Assembly (NCBI RefSeq): GCF_004010195.1
Contig: NC_057753.1
Location: forward strand, 2,898,087 to 2,962,086
DNA: 64,000 nucleotides
Direction of reading: 5' to 3'
Origin: Chiloscyllium plagiosum
Taxonomy: Eukaryota
The notes under the pieces were generated by a model. The model searched no databases and was not told where the DNA came from. It was given only the letters and a program-made list of their open reading frames with translations. Both the position numbers and the translations under genes were made by a program. Positions 20,760 to 61,000 of this stretch are shown here, piece by piece. Position 1 is the stretch's first letter. Each line of letters begins with the position of its first letter.

Positions 20760-21817
20760 CTCGTCATGAAGAGTAGGTCGCATGAGATCCTGGGAGTGCT
20801 GACTGGATTCAAATTAAGCTCGATGTTGGGATGCAGAGAGTGAGGATTGAACGTTCTTTTTCGTACTGGACGTCAGTGCAACAGGGGTCGGCGCCGGGCC
20901 TTTTTTATTTACACAATTGATCTGCATGTGAATGCACAAGGCATGATTAGTAAGTTTGCAGATGATACAAAATTAGGAGGTACTTTGCTGCACGGAAGGT
21001 TTCCAAAAATTGCAGAAGGATCTTCATCATATCGGAAATTGGGCTGAGGATTGACAAATGTAATTCAGTACAGGTAAGTGTGAGGTGTTGTACTTTGGAA
21101 AGTCAAACCAAGTTAGAGCTCCTTCAGAAGATGGTAAGGTCCTGCGGATTGTTGTGGAACAGAGGGACCTAGAAGTATAAGTACATAGTTCATAGAAAAT
21201 GGCATCAAAGGTAGAAAAGGCGATGAAGAACATGCTGGCCTTCATCAGTCAAAGCATTAAGTAAAGGAGTTGAGACGTTATCTTACTGTTGTACAAGTCG
21301 AAAGTGAGGCCGCATTTGGAGCATTGTGTACCGTTTTGGTCACTTTGTTTTATAAATGACGTGATTAAATTGGAAAGAGTGCAAAGAGGATTTACGAGGA
21401 TGTTGTCAGGAAGAATAGGCCTGAAGTTTTTGGAAAGGTTGACTACGTTAGGACTTTATTCCTTGGAACATAGCAAAATGAGGGGTGACCTCATTAAGGT
21501 GCATAAAATAATGAGGATCAGAAACAGGATGAATGCATTTCGTCTTTTTTTTGCCAGGCATAGGGAAGTGAAACCCTGAGGGCATAGGTTTAAGGTGAGA
21601 GAGGAAAGATAATGTGGTTGAGGCAAAAAAAAAAACAGGCGCAAAAGTTTGAACATATTTGCATAGGTATTTGGGTGGGTAGAGAATAGAAGGATACCGA
21701 CCAAACGCAAGCATTTGGAACTATTTGAACTGATGATGGGGCACCATAATCAGCATTGAAAAGTTTAGGCCGAAAGGCCTGTTTCAATGCTGTACTATTC
21801 TATGACTGTATGACTCT
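20760..21817 (+). mobile_element. Degenerate CR1-type LINE RT and 3' end
   Basis: ISKFADDTKLGG (ORF 20847); YKSKVRPHLEHCVPFW..LERVQRGFTRM (ORF 21289). Confidence 0.88.
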
Positions 21818-24800: not shown

Positions 24801-25869
24801 GGGACAGGCAAGGGATCTTTATCGAGAACGACAGAGAACACAAAGTCTCGAATAAATGACAATGCTTCTCTCTTCGCAGTGCTACTGGAGCTGCTGGGCT
24901 TCTACAGGAGTTTCTGTTTCTATTTCCGTTTCCAGCAGCTGCAGCATTTTCATTTTATTCGATGGATAGCATTTTGAATTAGATTGTGCAGTGGTGTGCA
25001 GCATTTTCGAGACACAAGCGACACGCAATGACCATCTACTACAAAAGTAATTCTAACTAATTCGCATTGTCACTCAATGGAGTTGCCATTACTGAACACA
25101 CTATTATCAGTTTGGTGGAGGTTATTGGGAAGGATGTGTTAAATACTCATTCAGAAGTCTGGAATTGTGTGGAAAGTATTACGTCTCCTGACTTCCCAAC
25201 GACTTCCATGATTTAAAAGGCACAAATCAGGAATAACGTGAAATACCCTGTACTTGCGAGGTACGGTGCAACTCTAGCGACACTCAATAAGCTAAAATTT
25301 TCAGGACAAGACAGCCCACTTGATTTGAAATGCAGCCAATACTGAAACATCTTGGCAGCAGTCAGAACTATCCATAATATACACTACACTAACTCACCAA
25401 GTTTCTCCCCCAGTAATTTCTAAAGTATCAAATTCAACACATCGAAGAATTGAGCAAAAGATTGATCAGAGCGCCACCAGACCTTGGACCCTGGTGCTGT
25501 GAGGCAGCATTGCTAACCACTGAGCCACCATGCACGATTTACTTGCAATAGGACTTCCTAAGATTCGTTCACATCGTAACTTGTTTTGTGAAAAACAAAC
25601 ACAAAATTACAGGACAACGAACTCAGGTATTTAATGGGAAAGGTTGATTTGGATATTATCAGAAATTGAAGGTTTATTGTAAAACGCAAAAATCTATTGC
25701 CACACTGTATCATTTTAAGTCTTTCACAAAAATGCAGTAGAGTGAATTCTTCCTCTGTGTTGTGTCCAGTCGGATCACTGTAAAGTATTCTAGTTAATCA
25801 TTGATCGTGAAATTCAAAAATATTGCACCAAATAATACATTCATAAAGTTAAGCAAATCAAACTTAGAG

Positions 25870-26650
25870 AAGTTGGATTCGCTGTTGGTCTGCTCACCGA
25901 GCTGGGAAGTTTGTTGGCACACGTTTCATCACCTTCTTAGGTGAATCGTCAGTGCTGTGTGGTCTGCTGTGAAGTCTTCAATCCTCGCCCGATTTGAATT
26001 TATGTGGTTCTGTTTGAGCTGTTTCCGCTTGGTGCCTGTTACAGTATTTCCATTGCAGAGCTTCGTACATCGGGGCGAGCTCCATGAGTTTGTTGAAGGA
26101 GTCCGAGGATGTGTACCATGCTTCCAGCAATTTCTTTGTTGTTCTTTGTTTAGCCTGTCCTAGTATCGTTGTGTTATCCCAGTCAAACTCGGGGTTCTTG
26201 TTGGCCATGTATATGGAGACCAGGGAGAGTTGGGCGTGTCGCTTAATTGCTAGTTGTTGACCATGAATGTGGATTCCTAGCTGTCTGGCTCTTTGTCCGA
26301 CATAGTGCTTAACGCAGACGTTGTGTGAGGTTTTGCAAATAATATTTGTCCTGCACATAGTCGATATCGGTACTAGCACAGTTCCTGGAAGCATGGTACT
26401 TATCCTTTGGCTCCATAAACAGACACATTGACCTGGATCCGATATACAGTTCAAACTGCTGCAATGGCAAAAAAAACGGAACCAGCGTCAACCGAAAATA
26501 GCTCAACCAGGATTACATAAAGTAGTACGGTAGTGCTTCAAAGTCGGCAACACAGCACCGATGATGTCACCTAGAAACGTTGCGAAATGTCTGCTAATAA
26601 ACCCACCTGGCCCGCGACCAAAACGGCAGAGAATCCAATCAGCTCCGGTA
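25870..26650 (-). mobile_element. Penelope-like GIY-YIG fragment with inverted terminal copy (paralog of 5325-6130)
   Basis: ORF 25978-26454. Hammerhead-like motif on the minus strand at ~25915-25955 (CTGACGAttcacctaagaaggtgatGAAACGTG). Confidence 0.8.
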
Positions 26651-27189
26651 CAAAGTACTTCGGATATGGCCGACACAATGTTAGTAAAGCTAAACGTAAC
26701 TAAAGAAAAAAATAATAATTAAAATATCCGGGTGGTCCAGCAGCACCTGCAAAGAGACAAGTGATGTTAACATTTTGCATCCAAAGTCTCTTCTATAGAA
26801 AGAACATGACTCTGAACTTTTAATTCTGATCATACATTTCCAATAGTACTGCTGTTACTGTTTCGACAGTTGCCGTCAGAGCTGCTGTGTTACTCCACCA
26901 TTTTCTGTTTTCACCTTAGATTTAGATCGTGGGCAGTATTTTGTTATTCCAAACTGCCAAAACCTGTAAGCAAATGGTTATAAGAGTTCTAAAGATTCAT
27001 GAGGGTCTAAAAGAAATTTCTCTTCATCTATATCTAAAAGAGACGTTTATTTCATTCGTCAGAGCATTTGTCTTAGTTCTAGAGTCACCAGGACGTCTAA
27101 CCACAAAATACAACTCTGATTTTGTATTGTTGTGAGGACGCATGGTAAGCAGTGTTCCTGGTGAGACTTGTACTAAAGACCCAGATCAC

Positions 27190-29849
27190 AATATCGACTA
27201 GAACCTCCTAAGTGCAGATGATTTTGATGGGGCCGTTTTTGTCAAGTGTGTTCAGGAGGGTTTTCTTAATCAGTATGTAGACAGACCGACGGAGGGAGAG
27301 ACCATTTTGGATTTGGTGCTAAGCAATGAGCCAGGATAGGTGTCAAATCTCGCGGTGGGAGGACACTTTGGTGACAGTGATCACAACTGCCCAACATTTA
27401 ACATAGCCTTAGAGAGGGAAAGGAGCAGTTACCGACGGAAGATATTCAATTCGCGAAAAGGAAATTATGACGCTATCAGACAGGAAGTGGGAAGTACAGA
27501 CTGGGAGCAATTGTTTCACAGAAAGTGCACAGAAAACATATGGAGACTGTTTATGGAGCAGTTATTGCGAGTGATTCACGCATTTATTCCTCTGTGACAG
27601 GTAAGAAGGAGTAAGATTAAGGAGCCTTGGATGGTGAGAACAAAAGAGCTTATCATCAAAAGGAAGAAGGCAGCTTATACAAGGTGGAGGAAACAAGGGC
27701 CTAGCACAACTGTAGAGTATTAAACGTTTGCTAGAAAGGAGCTCAGAAATGGACTAAGGACAACCAGGAAATGGCGCGAAAAAGGCTTGGCGAATAGCAT
27801 TAGGGAGAACCAAAAACATTTTACTCATAGGTGAGGAATAACAGAATGGTCAGGAAGAAGGTAGGGCCGATCAGGGATAGCGTAGGGAACTTGTGCATGG
27901 AGTTTGAGCAGATACGGGAAGCCCTAAATGAGTATTTTGCTTCAGTTATCTCTAAGGAAAGGGACTTTGTTGTGAATGAGAACTTTGAGGAGCTAAGATA
28001 CAGACTTGACTAGATCAGGATTGATGATGTTGATGTGCTGGAAAGTTTGGAAAACATTAATTTGATAAGTCCCCAGGACCAGACCAGATTTATTCTAGAC
28101 TGCTCCAGGAAGCAAGAAAGGAGTTTACTAAGACGCTGGCGATGATCTTTACCTCCTCACTCTCCACGGGAGTCGTACCGGAGGATTGGAAGGAGAAGAA
28201 TGTTGTTCCTCTTTTCAAGAAGGGTAATAGAGAAATCCCTGGCAATTACAGACCAGTCAGTCTTACGTCTGTATGGAGCAGTTATTGCGAGTGATTCACG
28301 CATTTATTCCTCTGTGATAGGTAAGAAGGAGTAAGATTAAGGAGCCTTGGATGGTGAGAACAAAGGAGCTTATTATCAAAAGGAAGAATGCAGCTTATAT
28401 AATGTGGAGGAAACAAGGGCCTAGCACAACTGTAGAGTATTAAATGTTTGCTAGAAAGGAGCTCAGAAATGGACTGAGGACAATCAGGAAATGGCGCGAA
28501 AAAGGCTTGGCAAATAGGATTAGGGAGAACCCAAAAACATTTTACTCATTGGTGAGGAATAACAGAATGGTCAGGAAGAAGGTAGGGCCGATCAGGGATA
28601 GCGTAGGGAACTTGTGCATGGAGTTTGAGCAGATTCGGGAAGCCCTAAATGAGTATTTTGCTTCAGTTACCTCTAAGGAAAGGGACTTTGTTGTGAATGA
28701 GAACTTTGAGGAGCTAAGATACAGACTTGACTAGATCAGGATTGATGATGTTGATGTGCTGGAAAGTTTGGAAAACATTAATTTGATAAGTCCCCAGGAC
28801 CAGACCAGATTTATTCTAGACTGCTCCAGGAAGCAAGAAAGGAGTTTACTAAGACGCTGGCGATGATCTTTACCTCCTCACTCTCCACGGGAGTCGTACC
28901 GGAAGATTGGAAGGAGAAGAATGTTGTTCCTCTTTTCAAGAAGGGTAATAGAGAAATCCCTGGCAATTACAGACCAGTCAGTCTTACGTCTGTGATCAGC
29001 AAAGTTTTGGAAAGATTTCTGAGGGATAGGATCTATGACTATTTGGCAAAGTATACTGTGATTAAAGGCAGTCAGCATGGCTTTGTGAGGTGTATGTCAT
29101 GCCTCACAAATCTTATTGAGTTCTTCGAGGTGGTGACAAGACAGGTTGACGAAGGTCGAGCAGTGGATGTGGTGTATGTGGACTTGAGCAAGGCATTTGA
29201 TAAGATTCCCCATGGTAGGGTCATTCATAAAGTCAGGAAGTATGGGATACAGGGAGATTTGGCTATCTGGATTCAGAATTGTTTGCTGACAGAAGGCAGA
29301 GAGTGGTTGTAGATGGAAGGTATTCTGCCTGGAGGTCAGTGTTGAGTGGGGTCCGGCGGGGCTCTCTTCTTGGGCCTCTGCTCTTCGTAGTTTTTATGAA
29401 GGACTTGGACGAGGAGGTTGAGGGGTGGGTTAGTAGATTTGCCGATGACACAAAGGTTGAAGGTGTCGTCGATAGTATCGAGGGCTATTGCAGGCTGCAA
29501 CGTGACATAGATAGGATGCAGAGCTGGGCTGAGAAATGGCAGATGGAGTTCAAACTGGATAAATGCGAAGTGATGCATTTTGGAAGGTCGAACTCGAATG
29601 CTGAATATAGGATTAAAGACAGGATTCTTGGTAGTATGGAGGAACAGAGGGATCTTGGTGTACAAGTACATAGATCCCTCAAAGTTGCCCCCAAAGTGGA
29701 TGTGGTTGTTAAGAAAGCATATGGTGTTTTGGCTTTCATTAACAGGGCGATCGAGTTTAAGAGCCGCGAGGTTTTGTGACAGCTCTACAAGTCCCTGGTG
29801 AGACCAGGTTCGGAATATTGTGTCCAGTTCTGGTCGCCCTACTATAAGA
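27190..29849 (+). mobile_element. CR1-type LINE ORF2 (endonuclease end through RT), unit 2 only
   Basis: ORFs 27340 (GDSDHN), 28863 (PGNYRPVSLTS..QHGF..SCLTNLIEFF..DLSKAFDK) and 29279 (GSLLGPLLF..FADDTK). Confidence 0.95.
27552..28992 (+). repeat. ~720-bp tandem duplication inside the CR1
   Basis: tatggagcagttattgcgagtg starts at 27552 and 28272; both copies end gtcttacgtctg; near-identical. Confidence 0.95.
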
Positions 29850-30980
29850 CTAATTGAGATCATAATTCTGTTGTCTTCGATGGAAAATGCAAAGAAGGCG
29901 TACGGTATATTAGGTTTTATCAGTAGACGATTGAGTTTCGGAGCCATGAGGACATGTGAGCAGATTCTGTTTTATAGCACTGGTGATTAAACATTCCATT
30001 ACTGACGTTGAAGAATAGACAGAAGGGATGGTAATTGGCCTTATTGGATTTGTCCTGCTTTTTGTGTCTTGGACATATCTGACAATTTTCAAAGTATTGC
30101 GGAGACACTAGTATAAAGGCTTAACCAATAACTTGGAAAAGAGTACGACAAATTCCGGAGTGCAAACTTTCATTATGATTACCTTAATGTTGTCAGTGCC
30201 CACAGGCATTACCGTATTGAGTGCCTCCAATTGTTTCTTTGACACAATTTGGACATCCTGAAAATGAAGAAGGGATTATATCAAAGTAAAATTTCCATTT
30301 TTCGATTCCGCAATGGTCTTGTCATGGCACCAGCCAGTGTCTTGCTGAAAACTCGCTGGCATGAATGAAGCATTGCTTAGAAAAAAATCACACTTCAAAT
30401 CCTGCTCTGGAATCAGGTCCTACTGACAATCGAGTCCAAACAAAACCCCCGAACAGTATCGTACCTAGGCTCAACCTCAACCGTTCCCATGCATTTCCCA
30501 TGGCCAATCCACCTAACCTGCATATATTTGGATTGGGAGGAAATCGGAGGACCCAGAAGAAACCCACGCGGTCGCTGGCAGAATATGGAAAATCCAGACA
30601 AACAGACACCAAAGGGAGGATTCCATAATATCATGAGACATAGAAGCGGAAGCTATGCAATTCAGACAATCGAGCTTCCCTCCCCATTTGATTATGGCAC
30701 ATGGGTTTTTTAGACGTTTTTCCCATTTTCTTCCCATAACTTTTGATCCCCTTGGCAATCGAAAATTTATATGTCACTGTTTAAAATATACTCAACGATA
30801 TTGGCTCCATAGCCTTAAGTGGCAATGAATTCTACAGACTCACCACTATCAGGCTGAATGTTTCTCATTATCTCCGTTCTAAAATGTGCTTTCGGGTCCT
30901 CATCTCGCTTACTAAAGGAAACATCTTCTCAACGTCCAGTCTGTACAAAATGTTCAACATTTAGCACTATCAATCAGACC

Positions 30981-31360
30981 ACTCCTCATCCTTCTGGCAT
31001 CAATCGCTTGTAGTCCCAGATTCTTCGAAGGTTCCTCATATGCTAAACATTGTATTCCATTGGTTATTTCCGTGAACCTCACCTGGGTGCTCAGGGCCAA
31101 TACATTCTTCCTGAGGTATTGGGTCAAAATTGCTCACAATACACTAAATGTGGTCTGTCCAGTATCTAAACTCCTCATCCTTCTGGCATCCATCGCTTGT
31201 AGTCCCAGATTCTTCGAAGGTTCCTCATATGCTAAACATTGTATTCCAGTGGTTATTTCCGTGAACCTCACCTGGGTGCTCAGGGCCAATACATTCTTCC
31301 TGAGGTATTGGGTCAAAATTGCTCACAATACACTAAATGTGGTCTGTCCAGTATCTAAAC
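30981..31360 (+). repeat. 189-bp tandem duplication
   Basis: actcctcatccttctggcat..agtatctaa at 30981 and 31170, with 2 visible mismatches. Single copy in unit 1 (~10270-10440). Confidence 0.95.
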
Positions 31361-33082
31361 GTGATCTGATTCCGAACCAAGGTTCACAGTTGTGAAATAG
31401 CAGTGCTAAATGTGATCCCAACTTTCCACAAGTTAATTCATGCTGCCAAGCTTGTTTCTGCAATATGACGAACTGTTTATCCACATCAATGCTCTAGCGG
31501 AGGCGATGGTGACGTGCTGTAATCGCTGCGCTGCTGCTTCCAAAGCAATGCCCTCTGTTCGAATGTGTCATAGCAAATGGCGATATTTGAATTCAATAAA
31601 AATCAGAAATTACTGGTCATATGATCACAGTGAAATCATTGCCGATTTTGAGGGAAAACAACTGGCTCATTAATCTCCTTTACAAAAGGAAACTGCCATC
31701 CTGACTAAGTTTGACCTACATGTATTTGTCGGTATCTGGAAATCCGTCATACACAACAACTGGGGTAGATAACATATGCAGTGGCAATAATTTGAAATGC
31801 GACCTTTCACGATCTTGAGCTGCTGTATCCATGAACAACATACACATCTTAACATACTGCTCATAAAATTGTAAGATTAACTTCCGAACAATAAGCAGGA
31901 ACAGTAAACCTTTTGACAAATGGCTAATGTTTGAATAGAATTGGAATAAATATTATGAAATTGGAGACCTATACTGGCAAGAGAACATTAAAAACATAGA
32001 AACTTAAAAGATTTTCCACGAGCATCCAACAGCCTAGGAAATTCGACCATGAATAGTTTCAGGGCAAAAGTTGTTGAAATCTATTTGCATATATCATAAA
32101 ATAATGTTGTTCATGACTGACTAATTATGACTTCTGATTGCATCTAGAAGCCGAGAGACTAAAATTTAGAAATGTGAAAAGAATATAGCAGCGAACAATG
32201 TCACGAATTTAAAGCCCAAATGATTGTAACCTTTGATACTACCCTATAAAAGCGGTGAAGAAGGCTGATGATATGTGCGTCTTCAAAAGGAAAATGGTGC
32301 CGTGGAGGTGCTGAGATGGGACGGTGTGTGGACAACATTAAAAAGCACACAATACCAGGTTAACGTTAAACTGTTGATCTATAACCTGGTGTTGTGTGAC
32401 TTTTAACTTCATAATGGTATATGGTATAAAGGAGCAAGTATGTGTTTCTGCTTTTGCATAGGGACTTTTTGACTATCGAGTGAGCGCTACCAATATTTGC
32501 CAGACTGATTTCTGGGATGTCAGGAAATTCATGTAAAGAGGACTGGATCAGTTTGTACTGTATGTACTACAGTTGGGAATAATGGGGGGATCTTACAGGA
32601 AAATGCAAAATTCCAGCACGAGTAGACAGGGTCAAAACAGAAAAGGACATTTCTGATGACCAGGAGTCCACAACAAACGCAGTCTCCAAGAACATAATGG
32701 AGTATTCCTTCTTCAATTTTCCATGTTTCTATGAAGTCACAACCGGATTTGGGGTCACATCCCACTTCCTCTGTGGCCACAGGTACTGAATGAGGATTGG
32801 CAGGCAGAATCTGGTAGCGTTTACTGCGAAAGGCTCATTTCTCATCACAGGTAACGGTGAAAACCTTACCTTGATATCCAGACAGTTATTGTTCCTATCA
32901 AGAAATGTTATTAGGAAGGGTTTGGGTTTCAACAAATATCATGTGCGAAATATCACGAAGTAAATAATTCATCCATCAAAACATGAACACCAGCCGAGCA
33001 ACAGCTGTACAGATCTGTTTCTTTAAATGGACTTTAATAAAAACTTAACAAACTAATGAGCTCCCAGGTGCCTAGAATGAGA

Positions 33083-33090
33083 CATAAATA
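33083..33090 (+). promoter_or_regulatory. Possible TATA-like element upstream of the GPCR start (paralog 12148-12155)
   Basis: cataaata ~55 nt upstream of the ATG in both copies; position only. Confidence 0.25.
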
Positions 33091-33138
33091 TCACAATTTA
33101 CACTGAAATTCTAAACAAGCTCACACAGACTGATAGAA

Positions 33139-33208
33139 ATGCATGAAGCACTAAAAGGTCTGCTGTTTGCCATTTACTATCCCGTCATTGCAGTAATCGG
33201 AGTTCCAG
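33139..33208 (+). CDS. GPR139/GPR142-like class A GPCR, coding exon 1 (N-terminus and most of TM1)
   Basis: ATG at 33139, MHEALKGLLFAIYYPVIAVIGVP+G, canonical phase-1 donor cag|gtaagt. Too short for the ORF track. Confidence 0.88.
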
Positions 33209-34875
33209 GTAAGTTACTGTCCATGTAGTGAGTGCACGAATGATGCATAAGTAGCAGTGAATGAGACAGTTCATTAGAATCACCTCTCCACTTTTCAGAT
33301 TGCCTGCCTCTGATTTAATGTCTTCTCATTTCCCTATCACGAGTGCAATGGATTTCGTTTAACTGCGATCATTATTTTTCTCCAACCTTGCATTACGTCT
33401 TATTTTAACTTCATGATTTCTCCCATGTCCATCATTTTAACAGAATTTGGCAGGATTGAACTGTAACTTCTCTACGTTATCCTGTTTATTTCAAATTCTA
33501 AATCATTAGGCTTCTCCATTTTGCCCCTATAATTTGATGTTCAGCCGTATTCTGCCTCCCAAACACATACAATTTCATTCTTCTAATTATGATTCCTGCA
33601 GTTTAGTGCTGACAGCTACATTTGTAGTTCTACTGCGTGGCTGGCCCTGCTCCTGCAGTGAATGGGCATAATGTTATAATGGTGTCAGTTCTGTAAATTT
33701 CTAGTACTGACATTTTTCTTGTGGGTGAATTAACGAAACCTTACTGTTATGCAAATTAGTTCTTTGGTGTCACTGAATTTCACATTATAAATGAAGTGCA
33801 AGTTATGTCCTATTCTGTTATTCACTTCAGGTGTGGATAAATTGTCACATTGTTCACAGTGGTGTAACTGCAGATTTATTGTGATATTGACTACTACAGA
33901 GAAAAACACAAAGAATTAATAATTGAGACTTGTTAGCCACTGAAAAATATATGACAGAATTTAAATAAGGGAAATGTTAAAGAGGCAATATGTGACACCG
34001 AGACAATGACCAAATCGTTTTTATCAGTCTGCCTGGATAAGTTTGATCACGTATCCATAGTCACCTTATTCTGAGACAGCACTTGAAACCAAACCTTCCC
34101 ACCGGAGGCAATCACTTTAGCCCACAAAAAAAATCTGAATTGATTTTTGCCTAAACTTTGTTATCACTATATTTCATTGGACATGATATGTTTCAGTGTT
34201 TCGGTTCTCAGCCTCTACAAAACTCCATACATCAGCATTGCTATCCTCCATCCCATTCTGTGTTGTTCAGTGTTCTTTAATGACTGATTTCCTTTCATTT
34301 CCTTTTTTGTCACCACATAGAAATGCTCAGACACCATTTTCACCATATTTTCCACATTGAGTGAAATCCTACAAATTGTAGCATCTCTCATAGGCATGCT
34401 GCATCGATTCTTGGTTTAAATGTCCACTCAACAATGAATTTAATTGTTAATCCAGACAGTTCTGCATAAGAATTTGGCTACAATATGGCTTGTCACTGTT
34501 TGCAACTCTCAATCTGCAGTTGAAGTCCGTGCAATCGACATCCACAAATATCTATGTGTTACTGTGTTGAGGCTCAAATTCACAACTGAGTTTGATAACA
34601 TGTCCCTTTCAAAGCTGAAGATAAAATCATTGTCATTTTGCATTCAACTTGATTTGAATAACTGTCTGGCGTCTTCACTGCTGACATTTTGAAGAAGGAA
34701 TCATTTTTACAAGAGCTTGTTTCATGCATCACTTTGAATGGGCAGTGTGACGCACTCAATATCCTTCGTGAGTTAATTGCTTATTGTCAGTTTCTCTATC
34801 TTTAATTCTTTCAATATTTTCTACAATTTTCTGTCATGTTTCCAAGTCAGCTCTGTCTTCTTCCGTGTTAGAATT

Positions 34876-35462
34876 TATGGCGATGCTGCTCCATTAACAA
34901 GATAACGTTGGCCTTGTTACTTTGTCGAAGGATTTAAAAAGGTGGATGTTCCAATTTGTCTAGGTTTCGACACTTTCATTCTGGCTGGCAGCACTTAAGA
35001 AAAAAGACTTTTAGATTTTTTTTTAAATCTTGTACAATGAAAAGGATGTGGCCAGTTCCCCCAGTTCAAAGATCATTCTAGTTTGGTTTTTGTTTTAGCT
35101 GCGGACCCAGAAAAGTTGATGGAGTGAACAGAGGTTCCACGATTCGGAAATGATCCCTAGCTGATTCTCTCTGCCATCTCCCTCTCCTCTCAGCACCTGT
35201 ATTTGAATTTAACTTTTTACTTTGTGTATGGGATTTTGCGGGAAATCAGAACAGCTCTATGTTGGGTTGCGGCAGACATTGCATCGGTCGGGTTTTCAAA
35301 TCATTGTTATTCTGAATTCTTTGTTTTCTTTTGTTTGTGTTTCCTCTGGTGGTGAGTAAATACATTTTACTTGAAGCCAAATGGTTTGACGACCTTCTTC
35401 TCTACTGAGATTTCCAACTGGAAAACAATTTGAAAACTTAGTTCCTGGACTGGTCCATAACA
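34876..35462 (+). mobile_element. Solo LTR (family B) in the intron of the intact GPCR
   Basis: Starts tatggcgatgctgc (cf. tgtgacgatgctgc at 55730) and ends tggtccataaca (cf. 51790). Absent from the unit 1 intron at ~14888. Confidence 0.78.
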
Positions 35463-35675
35463 AAGCCATTAAATTAATTTTGCATTATATTGACATTTAC
35501 TTGGTGTACTTTCTCATCTGGAAACCACCAGAAACTTCATAAGCAGTCTTGGCGAGCTTTATTCATAACTTACATCAAGAAACTTTCAAATTTACAAAGA
35601 TTCCTTTAAAGAAGAGTGATTTATTTTGGGAGTAAAAAACATTCAGTTTCTTTTTTGTGTGTGTCAATATTGCAG

Positions 35676-36592
35676 CGAACTTAGCAGTTATTTCGATCCT
35701 GTCTCGAAGAAGGTGTGGTATCCCCGGGTGCATCGTTTATTACCTTGTGTCAATGGCAGTATCGGATCTACTGGTGATAGTGACAGCTGTCGTTTTAAAT
35801 CGCATTGCTGGGATTTATTTTCCATCCAGTTTTCTCTCAATCACGCCTGTGTGCAGTGTTCGTTCTGCATTCAATTACGGATTTATTGATAGTTCTGCCT
35901 GGTTAACAGTCGCCTTCACCATTGATCGATTTGTAGCCATTTCTTGCCAGACACTCAAAATGACATACTGCACCAGGAGGACAGCGATGCGCATTGTAGG
36001 AATTGTGACTACATTAAGTTTCATAAAAAATATATTTGTATATTTTACATATGAACCGAGGTACATCGTAAAAAATAAACCCTGGTTCTGCAACCTCAAA
36101 GATGTATTTTACACATCAGTTGTATGGGCTGCATATGATTGGATTTGTTCAATTTTAACCACTTGTCTCCCATTCCTTCTGATCTTACTGCTCAATGCTC
36201 TGACCGTCAGATACATTCTAGTGGCTAATAGAGCTCGCACGAGACTCCAGAACCAGAAGATGGGAAAGAATCGGAGCGATGCAGAGATGGAGAAACGAAG
36301 AAAGTCAATCGTTTTGCTCTTTGCCATTTCAGGCAGTTTCATTCTGTTCAATGTGCTGTACTTTATAACAATCCTCTACGTCCGCATTGGGAATCTTACT
36401 TATGCCTCCGGTTCCAACTTTAACAATCTCTCTTTTGTCCTCAATGAAAGTGCATTTATGCTTCAGTTTTTGAGTTCCTGCATTAACCCGTTTATTTACG
36501 CTGGAACCCAGAATAAATTCAGAGCTGAGGTAAAGAATGTGGTAAAATATCCATGGCGCATTTTCTTCAAAACGTTGAAGATTTCGAAGTGA
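35676..36592 (+). CDS. GPR139/GPR142-like class A GPCR, coding exon 2 (end of TM1 to TM7 and C-tail); spliced product 328 aa
   Basis: Acceptor ttgcag| joins G+CG to give GVP-A-N (TM1 GxxxN). MAVSDLL (TM2), PVC (C3.25), DRF, ECL2 WFC, NPFIY (TM7). Open to TGA at 36590-36592; 70+917=987 nt. Confidence 0.93.
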
Positions 36593-39500
36593 AATAGAGA
36601 GAGACTGTAGTGGTGTTGTCAATATACTAATATTCCAGCGATTCAGAATAATGTTGTGAGCATATGTTGTGAAATCCTGCAATGAAGCAGGCTTTTGGAA
36701 TGTATATTCAAACCGATAAATCTGGATTATAATGCTGGTCTCAATATCTTTGAACAAAACTGTTTGCATTCCATTTATAAGATACAATGCAACTTATTTT
36801 GATGTAACTTTCTCATATTTGGCTATAGACCATTAAAGTTACTGCTACTATGCCAAGTCAAAGAGCAATCTCATGAGTGAATTGAATTTGTCATTTAGTC
36901 ACATCTGAAAGTGCAAGTATGCAAAATCAATCAAAGAGTCCACCAGGAATCTCATTTATCGTGCGTTGGATTTGTAAAATGATGAGCCGTCCGTCTGAAT
37001 GATTTTGAGCCGGAGGGGCGAAATCAATGCTTTTGGTCACCAAATGCAGCATAAATTTGTTAACAAAAAGTGAATATGACTTGTTTTAGAAAAGGTCTTC
37101 AATGCCACTCATCGCAACGGTCGATATTGCTGAGATAAGGTATTAAGAGGAGCATGCCATTCTGCCGCTCTAGTCTGTCCTGCCATTTATTGAAATCACG
37201 ATTTACATGTGACATGACTCCATATAACTGCATCTGTGCCATAACCCCCACTACCGTTTTTTTCTTAACAAAAAAAGAAACCATCTCAGATTTAAAACTA
37301 ACAACTAATCTACCATTAACTGCCGTGTGTGGAAGAGAGTTATAAACGTATACAGACCTTTGCATACAGAAATGCTTCCCAGCATCTTTCCTGACTGTCT
37401 GGGCCAAATTCCCAGACTATTCCTTCAGTTCTCGAATCTTCAGCAATTTGAAACAGTTAATCTATATCTGCCCTGTCTTTGCCTGTTAATATCTTGAAAA
37501 GGTTAATCAGATCAATCACACCTTGATCTCTAAATTCTAGGGAAATGTGTCTGGAGACCACGTGTTGTGTGCTAAATGCTTCGCAATGTTGTTGGGGTTC
37601 CCTTGCTTATAAATCAAATTTTACCAGTCAGCTAGATGAATGACAGTTTCTCTCTCAGCTTAAATATTTTATGGTATCTAGTTGTTGTCTATATCCACTT
37701 CTTTGTCTGGATGAGAATGGATGTTGCCTGCTTGTGTCTAAATGTGTGCACACCTTTCCTTACTTTTGTCAGTGTGATTCACATATTCAATGTGTTCTTC
37801 TGACAAGGTCGGCTTTCACTCCTTCCAATTACTCATTATTTTGCTTTGCATTTCCTTTGGAACTGCTTTGAACGTGAATGCTTAGATTTATTTCAAAATT
37901 TGGCAATTAAAAGTTATACTAAATATCATTAAATTAACATGTGCAAATCTTCGCTTAAAACGGAAGAAACATTGTCGTGGACTGTAAGGGACAGGAAGAT
38001 AATCCGTGTTTTGGTTATTAGCGTTGTTAATATCTCTGTATATAGAATAACAGCCAAGTATTCTAACTCAATTCGGGCAAACAATAACTGGATTTACTCA
38101 AAGACACTTTATTGTCATTCGAAACATCAGAAACCCTCTCATAGAATCTATAGAATACTTAAAGAAGCTTGCGTTTTTTTAATGATTTTACTCTGATTTT
38201 AGGCTTTTTGGCTCCCCTGTTTTCGAGGAGCGCCGACAAGTGAGATTGGAACTGGACAAAGCGATTTGACTGCACAGATTCCACATATCACACCTGGCCG
38301 AAATCGCCCCTCTTTTGTGGTGCGGTGACACTTTGGATAAACCACCACCAGTTGTCTCTTTATAATGAGAGATATTTTTAAAGTGAGAGCAGAAAAAAAT
38401 AATAAAGGGACGCGAGCAGCTACTTCTTCCAAAGGGTGATTCATAATTAGAATGAACTGCCAGAGTAGGTACAGTTGAAAGACATTTGTACAGATTGGTG
38501 ACTAGGAAATGTTTAGAATGATATGGCTCAAACGCAGGCAAGTGATACTAGTTCAGTTTTGGAAACATGGTTGGCATGGACAAGTTGGACTTAAATGTTA
38601 GTTTCCGTGCTGTATGACTCCATGACTCCATAAAGGATGGTCCTCTAGAAATTAAACTCTTTTACATATTGTATACATGTTCCTCTCCATATTCCCTGAA
38701 TCTACATTTCCCTGCAATTTAATATTTACATTACAGCAGTGACTGTACTTGCATGACAGTTCTTTGCCTTTGCAACAATTTGAAAGGTCCTCAGGTAGTT
38801 AACAAGTTATATTTACACATAAATCGGTCATTCTCTTTGTCAGTTAATGTAAGTGAAAAGAGAGATAAAGTTATGAAAAATACACACATCTTTCAGCTTC
38901 TACCTGTGTCCATGTGGCGTCTCTATGCTTCTGTTTGCTGTTTTATCTGTCTCTGTCTCCATGTGGTGCCTGTCAGCCTGGATGTCTCATGAACTTTGCT
39001 TTTCACTGATGATTATTGTTTCGTTCTGATTGAAGATGTTCTGGGATAGAACGTTTCCCTCTGGTCAGACAATAAAGTCAGGATTATTTTCAATTGCTTC
39101 TTGCTGTGATATTTCTAACAAGTAATGATGATGGTGCAAGGGATACGCAGACGTTAAAATTAGGAAAATATTAATCTATTACTTACTAGAACTGTTCTTT
39201 TCGCTTTTGGAAAAAAATGTCTATTTTGAGCTGCAAATGTGTATTTTCCTGTATCTGAGAATTTTTCTGTCAAGAACAAGAGAGCAAATATTTAATATAA
39301 TTTGCAAAGGTAACAGTAGATTTTTTGATGCAGCATGTGCTTAGAATATTTAGTGGAGTGTTAGGATTGCAGTGGAGACCACATTAAATAATATAGCTTT
39401 ATATTAAACTATTGCAGACTAAAATAACCTCACTCAATCTGGTATCCGGTCACCAAGTCACCCTTTATTTATTTGTACACAGTACGCTGGCTGTAGTCAG

Positions 39501-42058: not shown

Positions 42059-45000
42059 ACAGTACACTAGCTGTGACCAGCCAGCTTGGAGTCAGTTTCC
42101 TCAGCGGAGGAGATTCTAAATTCTATGTTTATTTTGGTCAAACAGGGCTTCTAGATTTCCTCATTTTAACAACCTCAATCAAAGATCTAGAAGTCATTGA
42201 AATCGACCTAGTTCCCATCACGGCAGCCATCCAGCCACACACCCACTCCCCCACTCCCGTGGCCTCTTATGCCTGGGCATGTCGGCCTGATATTTCACTT
42301 GTATCTTTTCGTGCGACATTTTTACCTCTGACCCGGTTACTCTGACATGGACTTGACACGGACGATGTGTACCAGACTGTTTACCGCCTGTTGCATCTGG
42401 AGCATCTTGGGAGAGTTTATTCCTCTTCGTCTGATGTTAATGGTATTGAGTCTGCATCCATCTCACTAGCTTAATGTTTCCTCGACACTAGATGGACCTG
42501 GGAACCTACGGTGTCTGGAAGACCTTCTGGCTGTTCTGAGGGACCAAGTTAGTGAGATAACATCTTTCATGTGATCCAGACGTTTGTTCAGGAAAACCTC
42601 ACCAACTCAAACTGTAAGTCATGGAATCTGCCCTCATATAAACTTTGCCTCATCTCCATAAGGCCATTTCCATGGTTCTGGCAACAAACTTTATCCCTCA
42701 AATCAAATTATCCTTCTCTCTCAGAGGAGGCATGTGGCCGCCATTGGCGTTCCTGCTGCCATTTCAGCCTCCATCACAAGTCTGGGAGTATCAGGTTTTA
42801 ACCTGGTGCAGAGTGTTCTCTGCATTGCTAACTCTGCTGGAGCTATATTTGTTGTTGCATGAGGGTAGGTTCTGTAATTGAACTGGAACCAAAACAGTTT
42901 GGTATCAAATGATGCTGTAGACTGCTTCTTCAAGCATGCATTCGATGTTTGAACTGCTCTGGCAACCAGACCACTGGATGATGGATGGTATGGAGCTGTC
43001 CTTATGTGCCAAATGCCATTCAACGTAAGGAAATACTCATATTCCCTGCTGGTAAATGACGTCCCATTCTCCATGACCAATACTTCCAGGAGTTCATCTA
43101 TCATGAATGATGCCCTCAGATTCTCAGCTGTTATCCTGGAGTTGCCAAACGAATTTTATGCACGTCCAAATATTTTGAATGGGCATCCACAATGACCAGG
43201 ACTATTCAGCCCATGAAAGGACTGGCAGAGTCGATTATGCAACCGACTCCTCGATTTTCCCCAGCCATTTCCATGAATGTGGGGCGCCAGGAGTGGCAAG
43301 TTTTGTCCTTGATGGTGCTCTGGGCATTGCCCAAACAATGTAACTATGTTGACATCCAATCCTTGCCACCAGACATAGCTTCTTGATGGCGTCATCATCT
43401 CGGAAATCCCTGGATGTCCCTGGTGCAGTTCCGCCAGTATCTGGCAGCGACATTTACTCGGGACAATTACGCTTGCTATGCATAGCAATATGTCGTCCTC
43501 GACAGTGGTGTCACACCTGCAAGTGTCCCTTCTGGGTTTAAACTTGCTGGATTCCTTTCCAAACACCGCTGGTCACAAAAACAGCCTGTCCTGGTGAAAC
43601 TGAAAAAACTGGTTGTAGTAGGGGAAACATAAGGACCATTGCAACTGGCATTCAAACCTTTCTGGACCCGACTAGACTACATCACCGTCGAGTATGATGT
43701 ATTCCTATCCTGAGCACGAGTAATTGTCCCGAGTAAAGGTTGCTCCTAGATACTGGCTTAATTCCACCACGGTAATCCAGGGATTTCCTAGATGAAGGGG
43801 TATGGGGATGCATTGCACCTCCCATTTCAGATCAGAGTGGGTCACTACCGTAGTTGATCCCAACTCTTTTTTTCAATTCATTAAATAAACTTCTTGGCTA
43901 CGTGACCATTTCCAAAGCTGACCCTTTTTCAATAGTAGGTGTGATGGTGCCAAGGTGGACGCCAGGTTACATATGGATTTTCCATCATAATTTACTAAAC
44001 CAAGAAAAGAACTTGGTAAGATCTGGTACAGACACGGGAGCTGCAACATCTTTTATCCCCCTCGCTTTATCTTCTAACGGGTGGAACCTGGTTTTGTCGA
44101 CTCTGTAACCCAAAAAAACCACTTGGGGTGCTTTTCGAACGCACTCTTTCTTCTCTTCTCAGGTATACGCCGGCCTGGGAGAGAAGTGAATGCTCTATGT
44201 CTAAATAATTCAAACGCTCTTAATTTGTTTTCATGATTATTAGCAACTCATTCAGATAAATGGCCGTTGTTAAAATGTTCTCCATTGTCTTATGGAAGAG
44301 GGTGCAGACTGGTGATGCCCAAAATGGCAGCTGTATGTATTGACATAAACCGTAAAGCATAATTCCGGGATCCCTCATCCAGTTGCAATTACAGGTCGGC
44401 ACGGTTCATGGCCAGGTTCATAAAGGATGGCTCCCCTCCCGCCCCGCCAATTTTGCATACAAGTCCTTTGTGCAAAGAATTGGGTATTTATCCAGCTGTA
44501 AGAAGCAGTTTACCGTTTGCTTATACTCCCCACTGGCCGAGTTTTTTCTTAACACAAGGGTTGGAATACCGAGTGAATCTTGTTAAAGACCGGTTCTGCA
44601 ACCACAGATACAGCTGCACCGGTATTGACCTCCACGAGAACAGGATGACCATTTAACAAACCATTAATTACAATCGGTTCTGATTTGGATGTCATTAAGC
44701 AGTTTAGTTGTTCCAACTCATATGTCGGGTGAATTTACTTACTCGAATCAGCCCCTGTAGGACTGCTTTGCTCCCTCGTGTCTGCAAACTGGCAACAACT
44801 ACAATGACTTGCCGGACCAGATGCTGAAGACCTTTTTAGCCTCTCGGCTGAGGCTTGGTTTGGTTCTGCTAGAGTCTTAGAGTCTCTCTGCTTAGGATAT
44901 GTCCTGCACGAGGCTCTGCGATTGCTGACACTCAATTAGTGTTCCTCAAGTTCAGTCTCATAGGTGAGGGTGTCCACTTTAAATAGGATGCCCTGTAGCT

Positions 45001-47650: not shown

Positions 47651-48119
47651 CTCTAAAGATCAACATATACCTTTACGAAATCTCTCAGGATTTGGATACT
47701 TGTCAACTTGCAATTCCAACTATTTGCTCAATACTAATTCCCTGTCAGTTTAACTTTCTTGAGTTCCTCCCTCCCTTTTAAATCCCCGTGTGAAGTTGTT
47801 TACAGGATGTTGTTTGCAGTTTTTACAAAGAGACCAACGTAAAATATCTGTGCAATTCTTCCGCCATCGCTTTATTACTTACCAAGGCCCATTTTCTGTA
47901 GGACCAATTCTTACATTGTCAACTCGTCTTTTTAGAAATATCTGAATAAGCTTTTCTTGCCTGTTTTTTTATCTGTCTCTTGCACTACAACGTTTCTCTC
48001 CTTATTAATCTTTTAGTAGTTATTTGCTGTTCTTTTCTGGGGAGGATGCAAGTGACCTCAATGGGTTGCAGAGGAAATTTTCCAGAATGTCTCCAGAAGA
48101 CAAATAGGGAATTGTGTTA

Positions 48120-48326
48120 GGAGAAAGTGAGGTCTGCAGATGCTGGAGATCAGAGCTGAAAATGTGTTGCTGGAAAAGCGCAGCAGGTCAGGCAGCATCC
48201 AGGGAACAGGAGAATCGACGTTTCGGGCAAAAAATTCCTGAAGAAGGGCTTATGCCCGAAACGTCGATTCTCCTGTTCCCTGGATGCTGCCTGACCTGTT
48301 GCGCTTTTCCAGTAACACATTTTCAG
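48120..48326. mobile_element. Short palindromic element flanked by a target-site duplication
   Basis: 74-bp inverted arms 48156-48229 and 48253-48326 with 2 mismatches. Direct repeat agggaattgtgtta at 48106-48119 and 48325-48338. Confidence 0.92.
48233..48270 (+). ncRNA. Minimal type I hammerhead ribozyme motif
   Basis: aattc CTGAAGA a GGGC ttat GCCC GAAA CG TC gattc: complete core, 4-bp stem II, palindromic ACGT stem III, GUC triplet ending at 48265. Stem I is weak. Confidence 0.75.
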
Positions 48327-49084
48327 GGAATTGTGTTACAACGTTAGAATGGAAAAGCTGGGGCTGAGGGAAGATTTTATCAAGATGTGCAAGATTTTAA
48401 CACCTTCAGGTAAGATAGGCAATGAAAAAGCTGTTTCCAGTACATAATGGTGCAACGCTGAGGGGACCATTTAAGATTTGGGAAAGAGATAGTTGGGTAA
48501 AGGGTTTTGATTATCTGACGACTGGCAAAATACAGAACATATTGCCAATAAGGATGAACAAAATGTGGGTGATCAACGAGTGAAGAAGGGAATTACATCA
48601 GCATGTCGGAAAACATTTGCAGGACTTTGTGGAAAGAAAAGGGAATGCGACAGATATGACAATTATACAGGGAGCCAGCGCTTAACGTGTTGGTCTGAAC
48701 TGCCTCTTTGATACCTGACTGAACACCTGCTTAGTTATTGTAACCTGCTCTGTTAACTTACTCCCTGGAATTAACTTATCATTCGAGCAAATCTGGTCTC
48801 TATATCCTATAATGTCAGTACCATCGGTCCTCACCCAGGCAGTTGAATATATACTCCGGGGTTGTCTAACCAAGAACTTGAATATCTCAGTGCGTTTACA
48901 GTCACACCAAACCTAAAATAATTTTCCAGAAACAGACGAACCGAATATTTTTCTCCCTATCATCAAAAGCAGCTGATTCCAGGCCTTGGTGAAGCGAGTG
49001 AATCTGTCAGATCTTGATGCGATGTTTGTTTTAATCTTCGTGTTTGTGAATCATAAATGCATTTTTATCCCATGTTCAAATTTC

Positions 49085-57530: not shown

Positions 57531-58004
57531 CTGTTTGGTTACATTAGAAGTGAGGGAAATAGCTCTTTATATTGCTGAAGCGGTTCTGTGGTTTGAAGCT
57601 GTTTCTCAATTTGCCAAGCAAGTTTAGAAAGACGTAGGAAAGATATAATTTTAGAATCGACAAATACATTAGAATCGTGTTTACCAAGGGACAAAAGGAA
57701 AGTTAAAATTGCAGTGGAATTGATCATGCACTTAGCTACATCAGAGAAACAGACAAGTGTAGTAGAGTTAGAAAAACACTTAAATTTCTGATGAGGCAAT
57801 TGGAGTTTGAAGGTAACAAAAGGGAGAGAAGGTTCTTGGCTGACTAAAAAAAGAAGGGAAAGAGAGGGCAAGCAACAGAAATGGAAGAAAGAGAGAGAAG
57901 GAAAAGAAATGGAGAGTAGGTTCTTGTTGAACAAAAAGAAAGAGAGAAAGAAGAAATCGAAAAGGAAAGAGAATTTGATCTTCAGAAGTTGCGAATTAGT
58001 CAAG

Positions 58005-58097
58005 AAAGAGAGTGTGGTGCTGGAAAAGCACGGCAAGTCAGGCAGCATCCGAGGAGCAGGAGAATGGATTTTTCAGGCATAAGGCCCTTCATCAGGG
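58005..58097 (-). mobile_element. Single-arm copy of the hammerhead-bearing short element, TSD-flanked
   Basis: Similar to 48163-48229. Minus strand CTGATGAagggccttatgcctGAAAaatc. Direct repeat attagtcaag at 57995-58004 and 58098-58107. Confidence 0.8.
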
Positions 58098-61000
58098 ATT
58101 AGTCAAGCAAGTCAAGTTAACAGGATGGAGATGAAGGGGAAAGATAGCGATGTATACAAATATGTTAAAATACTACCACATTTCGATTGGAAAGATTTTG
58201 AAGCTTTCTTTATCTCATTTTAAAAATTGGCTTCGCAAGTGGCGTGGCAAGAGAACTTGTGGGTCATGCCACGTTGGTAGGCAGAGCGAATGAAGTTTTT
58301 GCAATGCTGTCAGATGAGGTGGTCATGACATTAGACAGATTTCAAACAGGATATATTGAGGGCCTATTGTTTGGCACCTGAAGCATCGACACAGCGGTTC
58401 AGAAAGATAACGAAGGAAATAGGTCAGTCTTATTTTGAGATAGAAAGAACTAAACTTAACAATTTTGATAGGTGGGTGGGGGGCTGAAACATCGACATGA
58501 CATGTGAGGCACTAAAAGAGATTATTCTGCTGGACGAGTTTAAAAACTCACTTCCAGAGATGATAATAGCTGATGTGGATGAACTGAAAGTTCAAGAAAT
58601 GATAACAGCGGCAGAGATGGTCGATAAATAGGCATTGGTACGTAAGGCAAAATTTAGCTTCCAATAGGAATTTTATCCCCTAACGGACTGAAATTGGGAG
58701 GGGAGGGGAGGGGGAATCATTCAGTACAAAACAAAGAGTAGATCACACTGGAAATGGTTTATTACAAGTGAGAAAAGAAGCCCTAGGAGGTGAAAAGGAG
58801 GCGAAAGACCTTAGGTGTTTCAACTGAGATAATGCGGGACACATAAAAACGCAGTGCTGGTTGAAGTTAGGCACTGTGCGAAACGATGCAGTACAGGAAG
58901 CTACACCAGTGGGATTAGTGCAAGTAGTAAAGGTAACTCCAGGAAACGTTGAGGAGCTGCAGGCAAATGCGCAGCCCATGCAGAGATTGGGAATTGATGT
59001 TAGTGCCCGATCTCTTTTAAGACTTAACCTCTATAGGTAACGTTTACTCAGGAAGAACAGGAAGAAAAGGGAAAGAAGTTACAATTCTGGATTGGGTCGG
59101 GCTCTAAAAGCAAAATCTGCAAGTATTTTCACTCTTCTGGAAATTATCAGAGAGGTGATAATTTGTTGAATAGATGGACAAACATTTAGCGTTCCCCTGT
59201 ATAAGATCAGGTTAGAGAGCCAAAACAAAATTGGGAGAGTGATAATGGGAGTGACTGCCAGTCCCAGGACGACAGTTTCTTCTTGGAAACGACTTAGCAG
59301 GAGTAACGCCTCTTGAGTTGGAAAATGAAAAGCAAGTTCAGGGATCTCAGGAGTTAAAAGAAAAATACACTGGACTTTTACCAGACTGTTTAGTAATAAG
59401 ATCCCCCTGTCATACCTTACAGCAAGAAGGAAAAACTGAAAAGAAAGATGAAGGAGTTGACGTTCAGTTAGCTGATATACTGTTTGAGGTAATGGTTCAG
59501 GAAAAATCTCGAACAAGTAGAGGGTCAGGTCTGGGTTTGCTCCTGAAAGGCTAATGGACTAACAGCAGAATGATGAGACTATAGAAGATGTATATTATGA
59601 TGCATACTCAGAAAATGATTCAGAATGTATTCCCGAGGGTTGGTATCTTAAGGATAGAATCCTGAAATGAAAACGGAGACCATCACAGACCAGTGCAGAG
59701 GGGAAATGAGTGAAAATGAACCAGATTGTGTTTCAGATGGCATGCAGACAGGAAGCATTACAGGCAGCACGTGAATTGCCATTAGGAGTTCATCTAGGTG
59801 CGAGATGACTCGGGCAAAGGTTTAAAAAGCATAAAAAACCTGGATTGCATAAAAAATGTGGTTGAACTCTGCCATGCATGCCATTCAATACAAAACGTAA
59901 GTCAGCCTCAGGCAGTAATAAAACCTGGATCTCTATTGCCAATTCCCGCATTCGAAGCACATTTCACGTAGTTTATAATTAATTGTGTACGTCCCCTCAC
60001 TCAACGTAAAAGTGGGAACCAATATTTGCTTAACTTAATGGATGTGTCTACCAGATGTCTGGACGCAATACCATTACGGAGTGTCAAGGGAAAAAGTGTG
60101 GTGGAGGAGTCGGTTGCTTTCTTTACCCAGTATTGATTACCCAAGGAGATTCAGCCCGCCAAGGGTCTAATTTTACTGGTAGGATATTTAAGGAAGTCAT
60201 GGATATCTTAGGCTAATAGCAGTTTAACACAAGTGCGTACAATCCTGAATCCCAGGGAGCCTTGAAAACGTGGCATCAGACCCTGAAGACCATGTAAAGA
60301 GCATACTTTCAGGATTACCCAGATAATTGTGGTGAAGGTATTTCATTCATATTGTTTGCCATTATGGATGCCCCAAACGAATCCATTCAGTTTACTCCCT
60401 TTGAATTAATTCTTGGACATGAAGTGAGAGGGCCTTTAAAAATAATTAAAGTAAAACTGAAGGACCAATGTCAGAGATCTCAAGCTTTGATTATGTACCT
60501 GAGGTGAGGGAGAGACGAAATCGGGTAGGTGAATTCGCTAAACAGTACCTCAAGAGGGCGCAGCATAGAATGAAGCCCGAGACAGATTAAAAACTTTAAA
60601 ATTCCGACATTTTCACCTAGGGATGATATTTTGGTAGTGTTATCAGTGGTAGGAGATCACTTCAAAGCTAGGTTTTGTGGTCCCTATCAAATTGAGAAAA
60701 CATTGAGGCATGTAAACTACCTGCTCAAGATGCCAGATTGAAAAAAAGCCGTATCTGGTATCTCATGTAAATATATTGAAACATAACTGTAAAAGAGACA
60801 GGGAACTGAAGAAACAGGTGTTCGTTCCTGCCCTGCAGGGTGAAGTATCAAATGCAGATGGCATCAATTTTGATGGGCCTTGAAATATGTTAAAATATGA
60901 GGAATTCATTGAGGAATGAGAAAGAATACTGAGCTATCTGTCTCTGGAGCAAAGAACCGATTTGAAAGGATTGTTGCAGCAGTATAAGGACACATGCAGG

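Follow-up and report, generated by a model that had tools for sequence, protein, structure and literature searches.

Two truncated, head-to-head ends of a hammerhead-bearing repeat inserted in a decayed CR1-like fragment: a probable Penelope-like insertion

Anatomy of the insert and its target site

The locus lies in a 64,000-nucleotide stretch of DNA (referred to here as the window) and consists of a short insert within a decayed fragment of a CR1-like LINE. The original prediction, made from the sequence alone, described it as a palindromic mini-element carrying a complete hammerhead ribozyme core. The features of the locus, together with a second copy of the same repeat elsewhere in the window, are as follows:

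48044..48465, plus strand: decayed CR1-like LINE 3' fragment that received the insertion, recognized from translations and from an nhmmer profile of 7 window remnants
48106..48119, plus strand: left copy of the 14-bp target-site duplication (TSD), host CR1-like sequence; an exact repeat; in the empty site it aligns collinearly to the CR1 profile
48120..48155, minus strand: 36-bp putative "tail" of the type known from Penelope-like elements (PLEs), continuing the 3' end of the repeat and present in the inverted copy only; called from the sequence, the family terminus, the second window copy, which aligns into it, and the 30- to 40-bp tail described in PMC8557442, PMC3846280, and PMC11167929
48156..48229, minus strand: left arm, an inverted 5'-truncated copy of the repeat end; it reaches no further than the stem II loop and thus has no CUGANGA half of the ribozyme
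48230..48233, no strand: head-to-head junction with a short A run, 1 to 4 bases being unlike the family majority
48233..48269, plus strand: minimal type I hammerhead motif, with its core at 48238-48244, a 4-bp stem II, palindromic ACGU at 48261-48264, and a predicted cut after C48265
48234..48326, plus strand: direct 5'-truncated copy of the repeat end, tail-less; its last 2 bases are common to the right TSD, and it has private C>T changes at 48299 and 48313
48325..48338, plus strand: right copy of the 14-bp TSD; an exact repeat, and X1 record 7 spans this junction without differences
57973..58100, minus strand: second, older copy of the focal family, 82% identical, solo, without an inverted arm and with a degenerate hammerhead

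The 14-bp direct repeat that was predicted to flank the insert is indeed perfect, with exact copies at 48106-48119 and 48325-48338. A 14-mer match has a chance probability of 6.5e-9 at one given place and of 6.5e-7 across 100 placements. Between the two repeats lie 205 bp. The insertion itself therefore stands as first described, while its size of 207 bp was too long: the AG with which the right arm closes also belongs to the repeat, and these 2 bases had been counted twice. Microhomology of 1 to 2 bases is present at both ends of the insert; on the left, the last 1 to 2 bases of the TSD copy also match the tail end of the family, whose loose ends begin before 48118/48119. The host sequence is a CR1-like 3' fragment, as was proposed, and it is collinear across the empty site: when the insert is removed, a profile built from the 7 CR1-like remnants of the window gives a single collinear nhmmer match of 25.7 bits, compared with a best score of 0.4 in 300 shuffles.

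The insert is also found in other organism A samples, where X1 records 1 and 7 span its two junctions and X3 record 16 spans the left one. The ortholog in a related species (organism B) is without the insert: the flanks aligned in X13 record 9 (47885-48119 and 48367-48600) are 17 letters apart, 11 fewer than the 28 of a clean empty site. The two arms differ at 2 of 74 positions (2.7%; 95% range, 0.3 to 9.8) and the orthologous flanks at 23 of 468 (4.9%; 3.1 to 7.4), values that would fit an insertion later than the species split. The empty site in organism B could alternatively reflect exact loss of the palindrome between its direct repeats. The 14-bp repeat, the empty ortholog, and the CR1 collinearity all agree with the TSD-type insertion that was predicted.

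The arms at 48156-48229 and 48253-48326 pair across 74 bp with two G.T mismatches, at 48169/48313 and 48183/48299, which reproduces the earlier description of inverted arms whose only two mismatches both read as G-U in plus-strand RNA. The element is not a symmetric palindrome, however. A 36-bp unpaired extension (48120-48155), initially overlooked, flanks the arms on one side and has no counterpart on the other, and 48234-48249 belong to the direct copy alone. On the minus strand, this extension carries the sequence of the right arm 36 bases further. The insert comprises an inverted copy of 113 bases, running from 48232 in the stem II loop to 48120 at the end of the extension, and a direct copy of 93 bases (48234-48326), which starts just 5' of the core and is without the extension. 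The two copies stand head-to-head, and neither includes the other. Family reads part at the junction, with loose ends behind 48229 and before 48234 and variant rows at 48230, 48233, and 48234. A stop-free plus-strand frame of 76 codons crosses the whole insert (48120-48350), which we take as chance; protein searches with this frame and with a 44-codon minus-strand frame that is open across the tail returned no candidate, which is weak evidence in both cases.

Hammerhead motif and predicted folding

The letters of a minimal type I hammerhead are found where they had been reported: CUGAAGA at 48238-48244, an extra A at 48245, stem II as GGGC/GCCC (48246-48249/48254-48257), GAAA at 48258-48261, then CG, U48264, and C48265, the last of these being C17, with palindromic ACGU forming stem III. 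PMC4209133 defines the minimal hammerhead (min-HHR) and describes opposite-strand motif pairs 100 to 700 bp apart. The core fits that definition (CUGANGA...GAAA...UH, a G10.1-C11.1 pair, an extra base at 9/10.1, and a palindromic 15.2-16.2), and it shares these traits, and a putative short helix I, with the metazoan PLE min-HHRs described there. It is unlike the Schistosoma min-HHRs of the same source in that helix II has 4 bp here rather than 7 to 8, and the inverted copy is without the 5' half of the core. Stem I has 4 bp, is bulged, and lies one A from the junction. The earlier caveat that this stem is short (~4 bp) and bulged was apt. Its pair probability is at most 0.085 even in the isolated motif.

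An Rfam search, which had been suggested as a check, recovered no hammerhead family. At this locus there were 15 matches at E<=10, all below the gathering score and none a hammerhead, and the whole 64-kb window contained 0 hammerheads at the gathering score; the best matches here are sub-gathering miRNA hairpin models, owing to the long helix. A relaxed minimal descriptor found 2 sites in the window, both of them copies of this repeat; random 64-kb sequences (n=60) gave 0.2 on average and never more than 2. By itself, the hammerhead motif is only modestly above chance, and its support is the context. Position N7 (48242) reads A>T in 421 of 1,000 RNA reads. Of the 40 variant rows listed (there are 116 further), no other falls in the core, a suggestive hint of core conservation.

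Long inverted arms, the lack of an Rfam hammerhead match, and the 0.2 descriptor matches per random 64 kb are all features that a DNA-transposon MITE with chance hammerhead-like letters would share. In such an element the inverted repeats should be terminal, however, and here the 36-bp tail lies outside them; the TSD is 14 bp, the second copy in the window is one-armed, and the junctions vary among loci (see below). The original prediction had named fixed short TSDs with terminal inverted repeats as the marks of a MITE; the TSD at this locus is long, and the arms are not terminal. Contradicted by the solo copies and the variable junctions, the MITE reading has in our view almost no probability.

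The predicted fold of the region has an energy of -165.9 kcal/mol (z = -20.8), a stability that 0 of 200 shuffles equaled. Forcing the ribozyme fold costs 30.1 kcal/mol in the full element and 4.4 kcal/mol without the left arm. The probability of stem II is 0.0 in the full element and also in a nascent RNA ending just past the core; the left arm comes first in transcription. In a model without core contacts, a double-hammerhead fold reaches -9.5 kcal/mol, versus -16.4 kcal/mol for two monomers and -24.1 kcal/mol for the free dimer. The hairpin and the ribozyme had been portrayed as two alternative, mutually exclusive folds. We rule out a two-state switch of this kind because the hairpin is favored over the ribozyme fold by about 30 kcal/mol. 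On this folding model, the ribozyme is predicted to be inactive at this locus, trapped by the hairpin.

The two G-U pairs were also considered as a sign of RNA-level selection. Reads of the family show C in 482 of 517 cases (93%) at 48299 and in 257 of 291 (88%) at 48313; both pairs are ordinary private C>T transitions in the right arm. Given two transitions, the probability that both read as G-U on one strand is p = 0.25. Their private status and this value rule out the selection interpretation.

The repeat family and its variable junctions

The family was surveyed in 4 of the 24 listed sequencing runs at a likeness of 80. Contigs matching the repeat numbered 64,127 and 97,084 in the organism A runs and 76,196 in the organism B run. 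Summed depth reached about 1e7 on the element versus about 4 to 50 in most flank bins, a figure that is not a copy number. The repeat family is very abundant. The tail end is a common terminus of the family: among the 24 loose-end rows listed (of 1,274), all 4 runs have ends before 48118/48119, and the flanks beyond this terminus are unlike one another (agreement, 0.32 to 0.49). A pattern scan found 0 family members in viral contigs; its 27 metagenome and 11 GTDB contig matches are attributed to chance, since 0 of these 38 align beyond 26 bases. In one RNA run (polyA single-cell, ~2% read) there were 3,792 family reads on both strands, 98% of which continue into unlike sequence. The flanks adjoining the insert have essentially no depth in this run, which is weak on transcription, and the family reads have no pile-up of starts or ends, a result that is likewise weak on cleavage.

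Head-to-head joints are variable. Among the 15 joints listed (of 552), the inverted arms end at 15 different places between 48142 and 48210, and the direct copies start at 48233-48245; these joints come from both organisms and have 0 to 5 letters in common. The clustering of the direct-copy starts is partly forced, because the stretch has nothing upstream of the ribozyme. Depth across the palindrome center is 0.29%, 0.93%, and 0.42% of the depth at the core. Because junctions vary by locus and the center depth is below 1%, we conclude that the hairpin most likely arose during insertion rather than being the replicating unit.

Two observations speak for a palindrome that is itself the replicating mini-element, regulated by alternative hairpin and ribozyme folds. 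A few junctions have 20 to 60 times the depth of the flanks (48181>48242, for instance, has a depth of 298 in X1 and of 286 in X3, from a single contig in either run), and the center region is crossed by 5 pieces of contigs that belong to other loci. Those 5 pieces, however, differ by 7 to 18 letters and 2 to 10 gaps, and a single replicating unit is difficult to reconcile with junctions that vary and a center at less than 1% of the depth. Regulation by folding is also at odds with the 30-kcal/mol lead of the hairpin, with prior transcription of the left arm, and with the private nature of the G-U transitions. We consider this reading improbable. The high-depth junctions count to some extent against a hairpin made only at insertion; they can be explained by recurrence via microhomology in a huge family or by amplified palindromic units, and a subset of junctions may have been re-amplified in the latter way.

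The form of the source element is a separate question. Letters 5' of 48234 agree poorly among copies (0.33 to 0.45 across 30 letters in all 4 runs), save for the last dozen or so, and the second window copy likewise begins at the 5' edge of the ribozyme. Both observations would suit a short, non-autonomous, SINE-like family made only of the pLTR (about 130 to 150 nt, from ribozyme to tail) and served in trans by a PLE protein, with the head-to-head form still made at insertion. Non-autonomous PLE derivatives and trans mobilization are described in the literature. A long element that is heavily truncated at random 5' points, however, would show the same loss of agreement, and a boundary at 48234 is inevitable in a stretch without sequence upstream of the ribozyme. 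We view a pLTR-only source as possible, with the balance somewhat against it. It is compatible with our preferred explanation, a PLE insertion, and differs from it only in the master copy.

Other repeats in the window provide some context. The second copy of the focal family (57973..58100) aligns into the tail region; its core is decayed and degenerate at 15.2/16.2. No reverse transcriptase (RT) or GIY-YIG open reading frame (ORF) was recognized by eye upstream of it. Ten bases are directly repeated at 58107 and 58004, which may reflect the TSD of a tail-less copy or chance in a decayed tail. Another PLE-like family occurs on the minus strand at 25873-26638 and 5365-6060, two loci that are segmental duplicates. 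It has a GIY-YIG fragment (ORF 25978-26487), a hammerhead-like motif just downstream (25952 and 5409), and an inverted copy. The GIY-YIG remnant has an Atlas score of 0.93 with 190 shared features, the Pfam family being present on 20 to 28% of cluster members; a Pfam search of the remnant itself gave no match. Its layout is that of the focal insert, here with coding remains; the family is an unrelated one, and the parallel is one of analogy rather than linkage.

Weak matches (E 0.6 to 2.9) to both orientations of the repeat, facing apart, are found at 6608-6849 and 26700-26933, where a related family may have inserted head-to-head long ago; more weak repeat matches lie at 3920-4011 and 24854-24945. 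The window also contains an old tandem segmental duplication (211-22446 versus 21654-39138, about 70 to 90% identity) with rhodopsin-family GPCR genes, of which 35636-36592 is intact (7tm_1, E 8.7e-24), whereas two frames share the coding sequence of its paralog at 15144-16029. Near-identical tandem duplications at 27552-28993 (721 bp, 97.8%) and 30981-31360 (190 bp, 99%) are either recent or an assembly artifact. An inverted pair at 43395-43795 (117 bp, 79% identical) adjoins an integrase zinc-binding remnant (42721-43572, Integrase_H2C2), and we describe this region as an LTR-retrotransposon-like fragment with a local inversion. Finally, 32338-32406 is an imperfect 69-bp palindrome (78%) without a recognized core.

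Origin by a Penelope-like insertion

We propose, with a probability of roughly 75%, that the insert represents two 5'-truncated copies of a hammerhead-bearing repeat end, joined head-to-head, with a tail on one of them, and likely made in one event by a PLE RT/endonuclease. Membership of the focal family in the PLEs is likely and rests on its anatomy; a single ORF with RT and GIY-YIG endonuclease, the coding mark of such elements, did not turn up in protein searches with two frames of the insert. The earlier idea of a ribozyme-bearing retroelement mobilized by PLE machinery is upheld with respect to the PLE-type minimal hammerhead and the TSD insertion. The palindrome as a distinct mini-element is not, given the published PLE pattern of an inverted copy plus tail, the variable junctions, and a center at less than 1% of the family depth.

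This pattern has precedents in the PLE literature. In Adineta, Pen2a_Av has an inverted pLTR, an optional 31-bp tail on one inverted copy, and TSDs of 8 to 10 bp, with head-to-head the commonest arrangement (PMC3846280). A scheme in the Fig. 2 legend of PMC8557442 depicts PLE insertions with a 30- to 40-bp tail, often at one end only. The present insert resembles these endonuclease-positive (EN+) PLE insertions in its head-to-head inverted truncated copy, its tail of 30 to 40 bp on one copy, its long TSD, and its terminal-repeat hammerhead. It is unlike the published ones in consisting of stubs of 113 and 93 bases without an ORF, in having a TSD of 14 bp rather than 8 to 10, and in belonging to a very abundant family.

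A biochemical parallel is provided by the Poseidon protein of Anolis carolinensis (PAc), which, according to PMC11167929, cuts and extends both target strands in vitro and assists the ribozyme. The tail in that system is the distance between two internal RT start sites, and hammerhead cleavage is not required. The minimal hammerhead, the short region, and the tail are like those of PAc, whose internal starts would explain tailed and tail-less ends. Unlike PAc, in which an ORF runs from stem II, the stem II ATG here opens only 26 codons.

A mechanism for the focal insertion can be outlined on this basis. Staggered nicks 14 bp apart in the two target strands would each prime reverse transcription on uncleaved element RNA; the template would have been uncleaved because the direct copy retains sequence 5' of the cut site. 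One start at the outer site would give the tailed arm, and the other, 36 to 38 bases further in, the tail-less arm. Both cDNAs would stop within or just past the ribozyme, and end joining that adds a few A's would connect them. On this view, the hairpin would be a by-product and the hammerhead a passenger from the source element, and read-through RNA at the locus would fold into a 74-bp helix with no cleavage.

The inversion could also have arisen, still with a PLE origin, from a single cDNA that folds back and primes its own copying (or from antisense-template priming), with the endonuclease then trimming one tail. Palindromes at the junctions of inverted copies led PMC3846280 to propose fold-back self-priming, and PMC8557442 ascribes the tail to EN-mediated resolution. 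At this locus, the inverted arm ends exactly at the stem II loop, a ready fold-back site. The tail, however, is only on the inverted arm, and 48234-48249 are only on the direct arm. Because a self-copied cDNA cannot give both a tail and a direct-only segment, fold-back would need an extra trimming step; moreover, the tail observed in vitro matches two RT start sites (PMC11167929). That neither arm contains the other favors two priming events over simple fold-back, which we regard as unlikely though far from negligible. In a search of mostly open-access literature, we found no paper that states a two-priming model for PLE inversions; PMC3846280 argues for self-priming. Extending the two-priming scheme, we tentatively suggest that such stubs may be genomic traces of twin priming, carried out by a dimer of the PLE protein, in which both strands prime at the tail-defining sites and both stall at the ribozyme fold. 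This is a speculation that we hold as plausible but short of even odds.

Animal non-LTR retrozymes, as described in bioRxiv 10.64898/2026.07.22.740005, are likewise short, non-coding, pLTR-related, and equipped with a type I hammerhead. That preprint ties animal retrozymes to pLTRs, reports cleavage of 1 of 9 dimers, and records retrozymes in one chondrichthyan genome. Retrozymes form head-to-tail arrays with a complete ribozyme per unit, unlike the single head-to-head insertion with one complete core seen here. We rejected a non-LTR retrozyme on these grounds: there are no head-to-tail units, one core is complete, and the copies are inverted. With respect to cartilaginous fish, an expansion of Penelope-like elements is reported in a whale shark preprint, and such elements are also listed in PMC8455134; 2 of the 3 supplementary files of PMC4209133 contain no cartilaginous-fish names. 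Our search found no paper on Penelope with a hammerhead ribozyme in cartilaginous fish or on Penelope/Neptune in a shark genome.

The insertion pattern at this locus is already described for PLEs, and the locus is one of very many copies, so that singly it matters little. As a class, such stubs could test how the inverted copy and tail of PLEs arise and what part the ribozyme plays, because a single stub preserves, in about 230 bp, the two start sites, the junction, and the TSD. Should twin priming prove true, the very many copies and hundreds of head-to-head junctions would form a dataset for distinguishing twin priming from self-priming, and the same dataset could tell whether the hammerhead sets the truncation point. 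The long perfect hairpins that such insertions scatter through a vertebrate genome may also be a source of double-stranded RNA.
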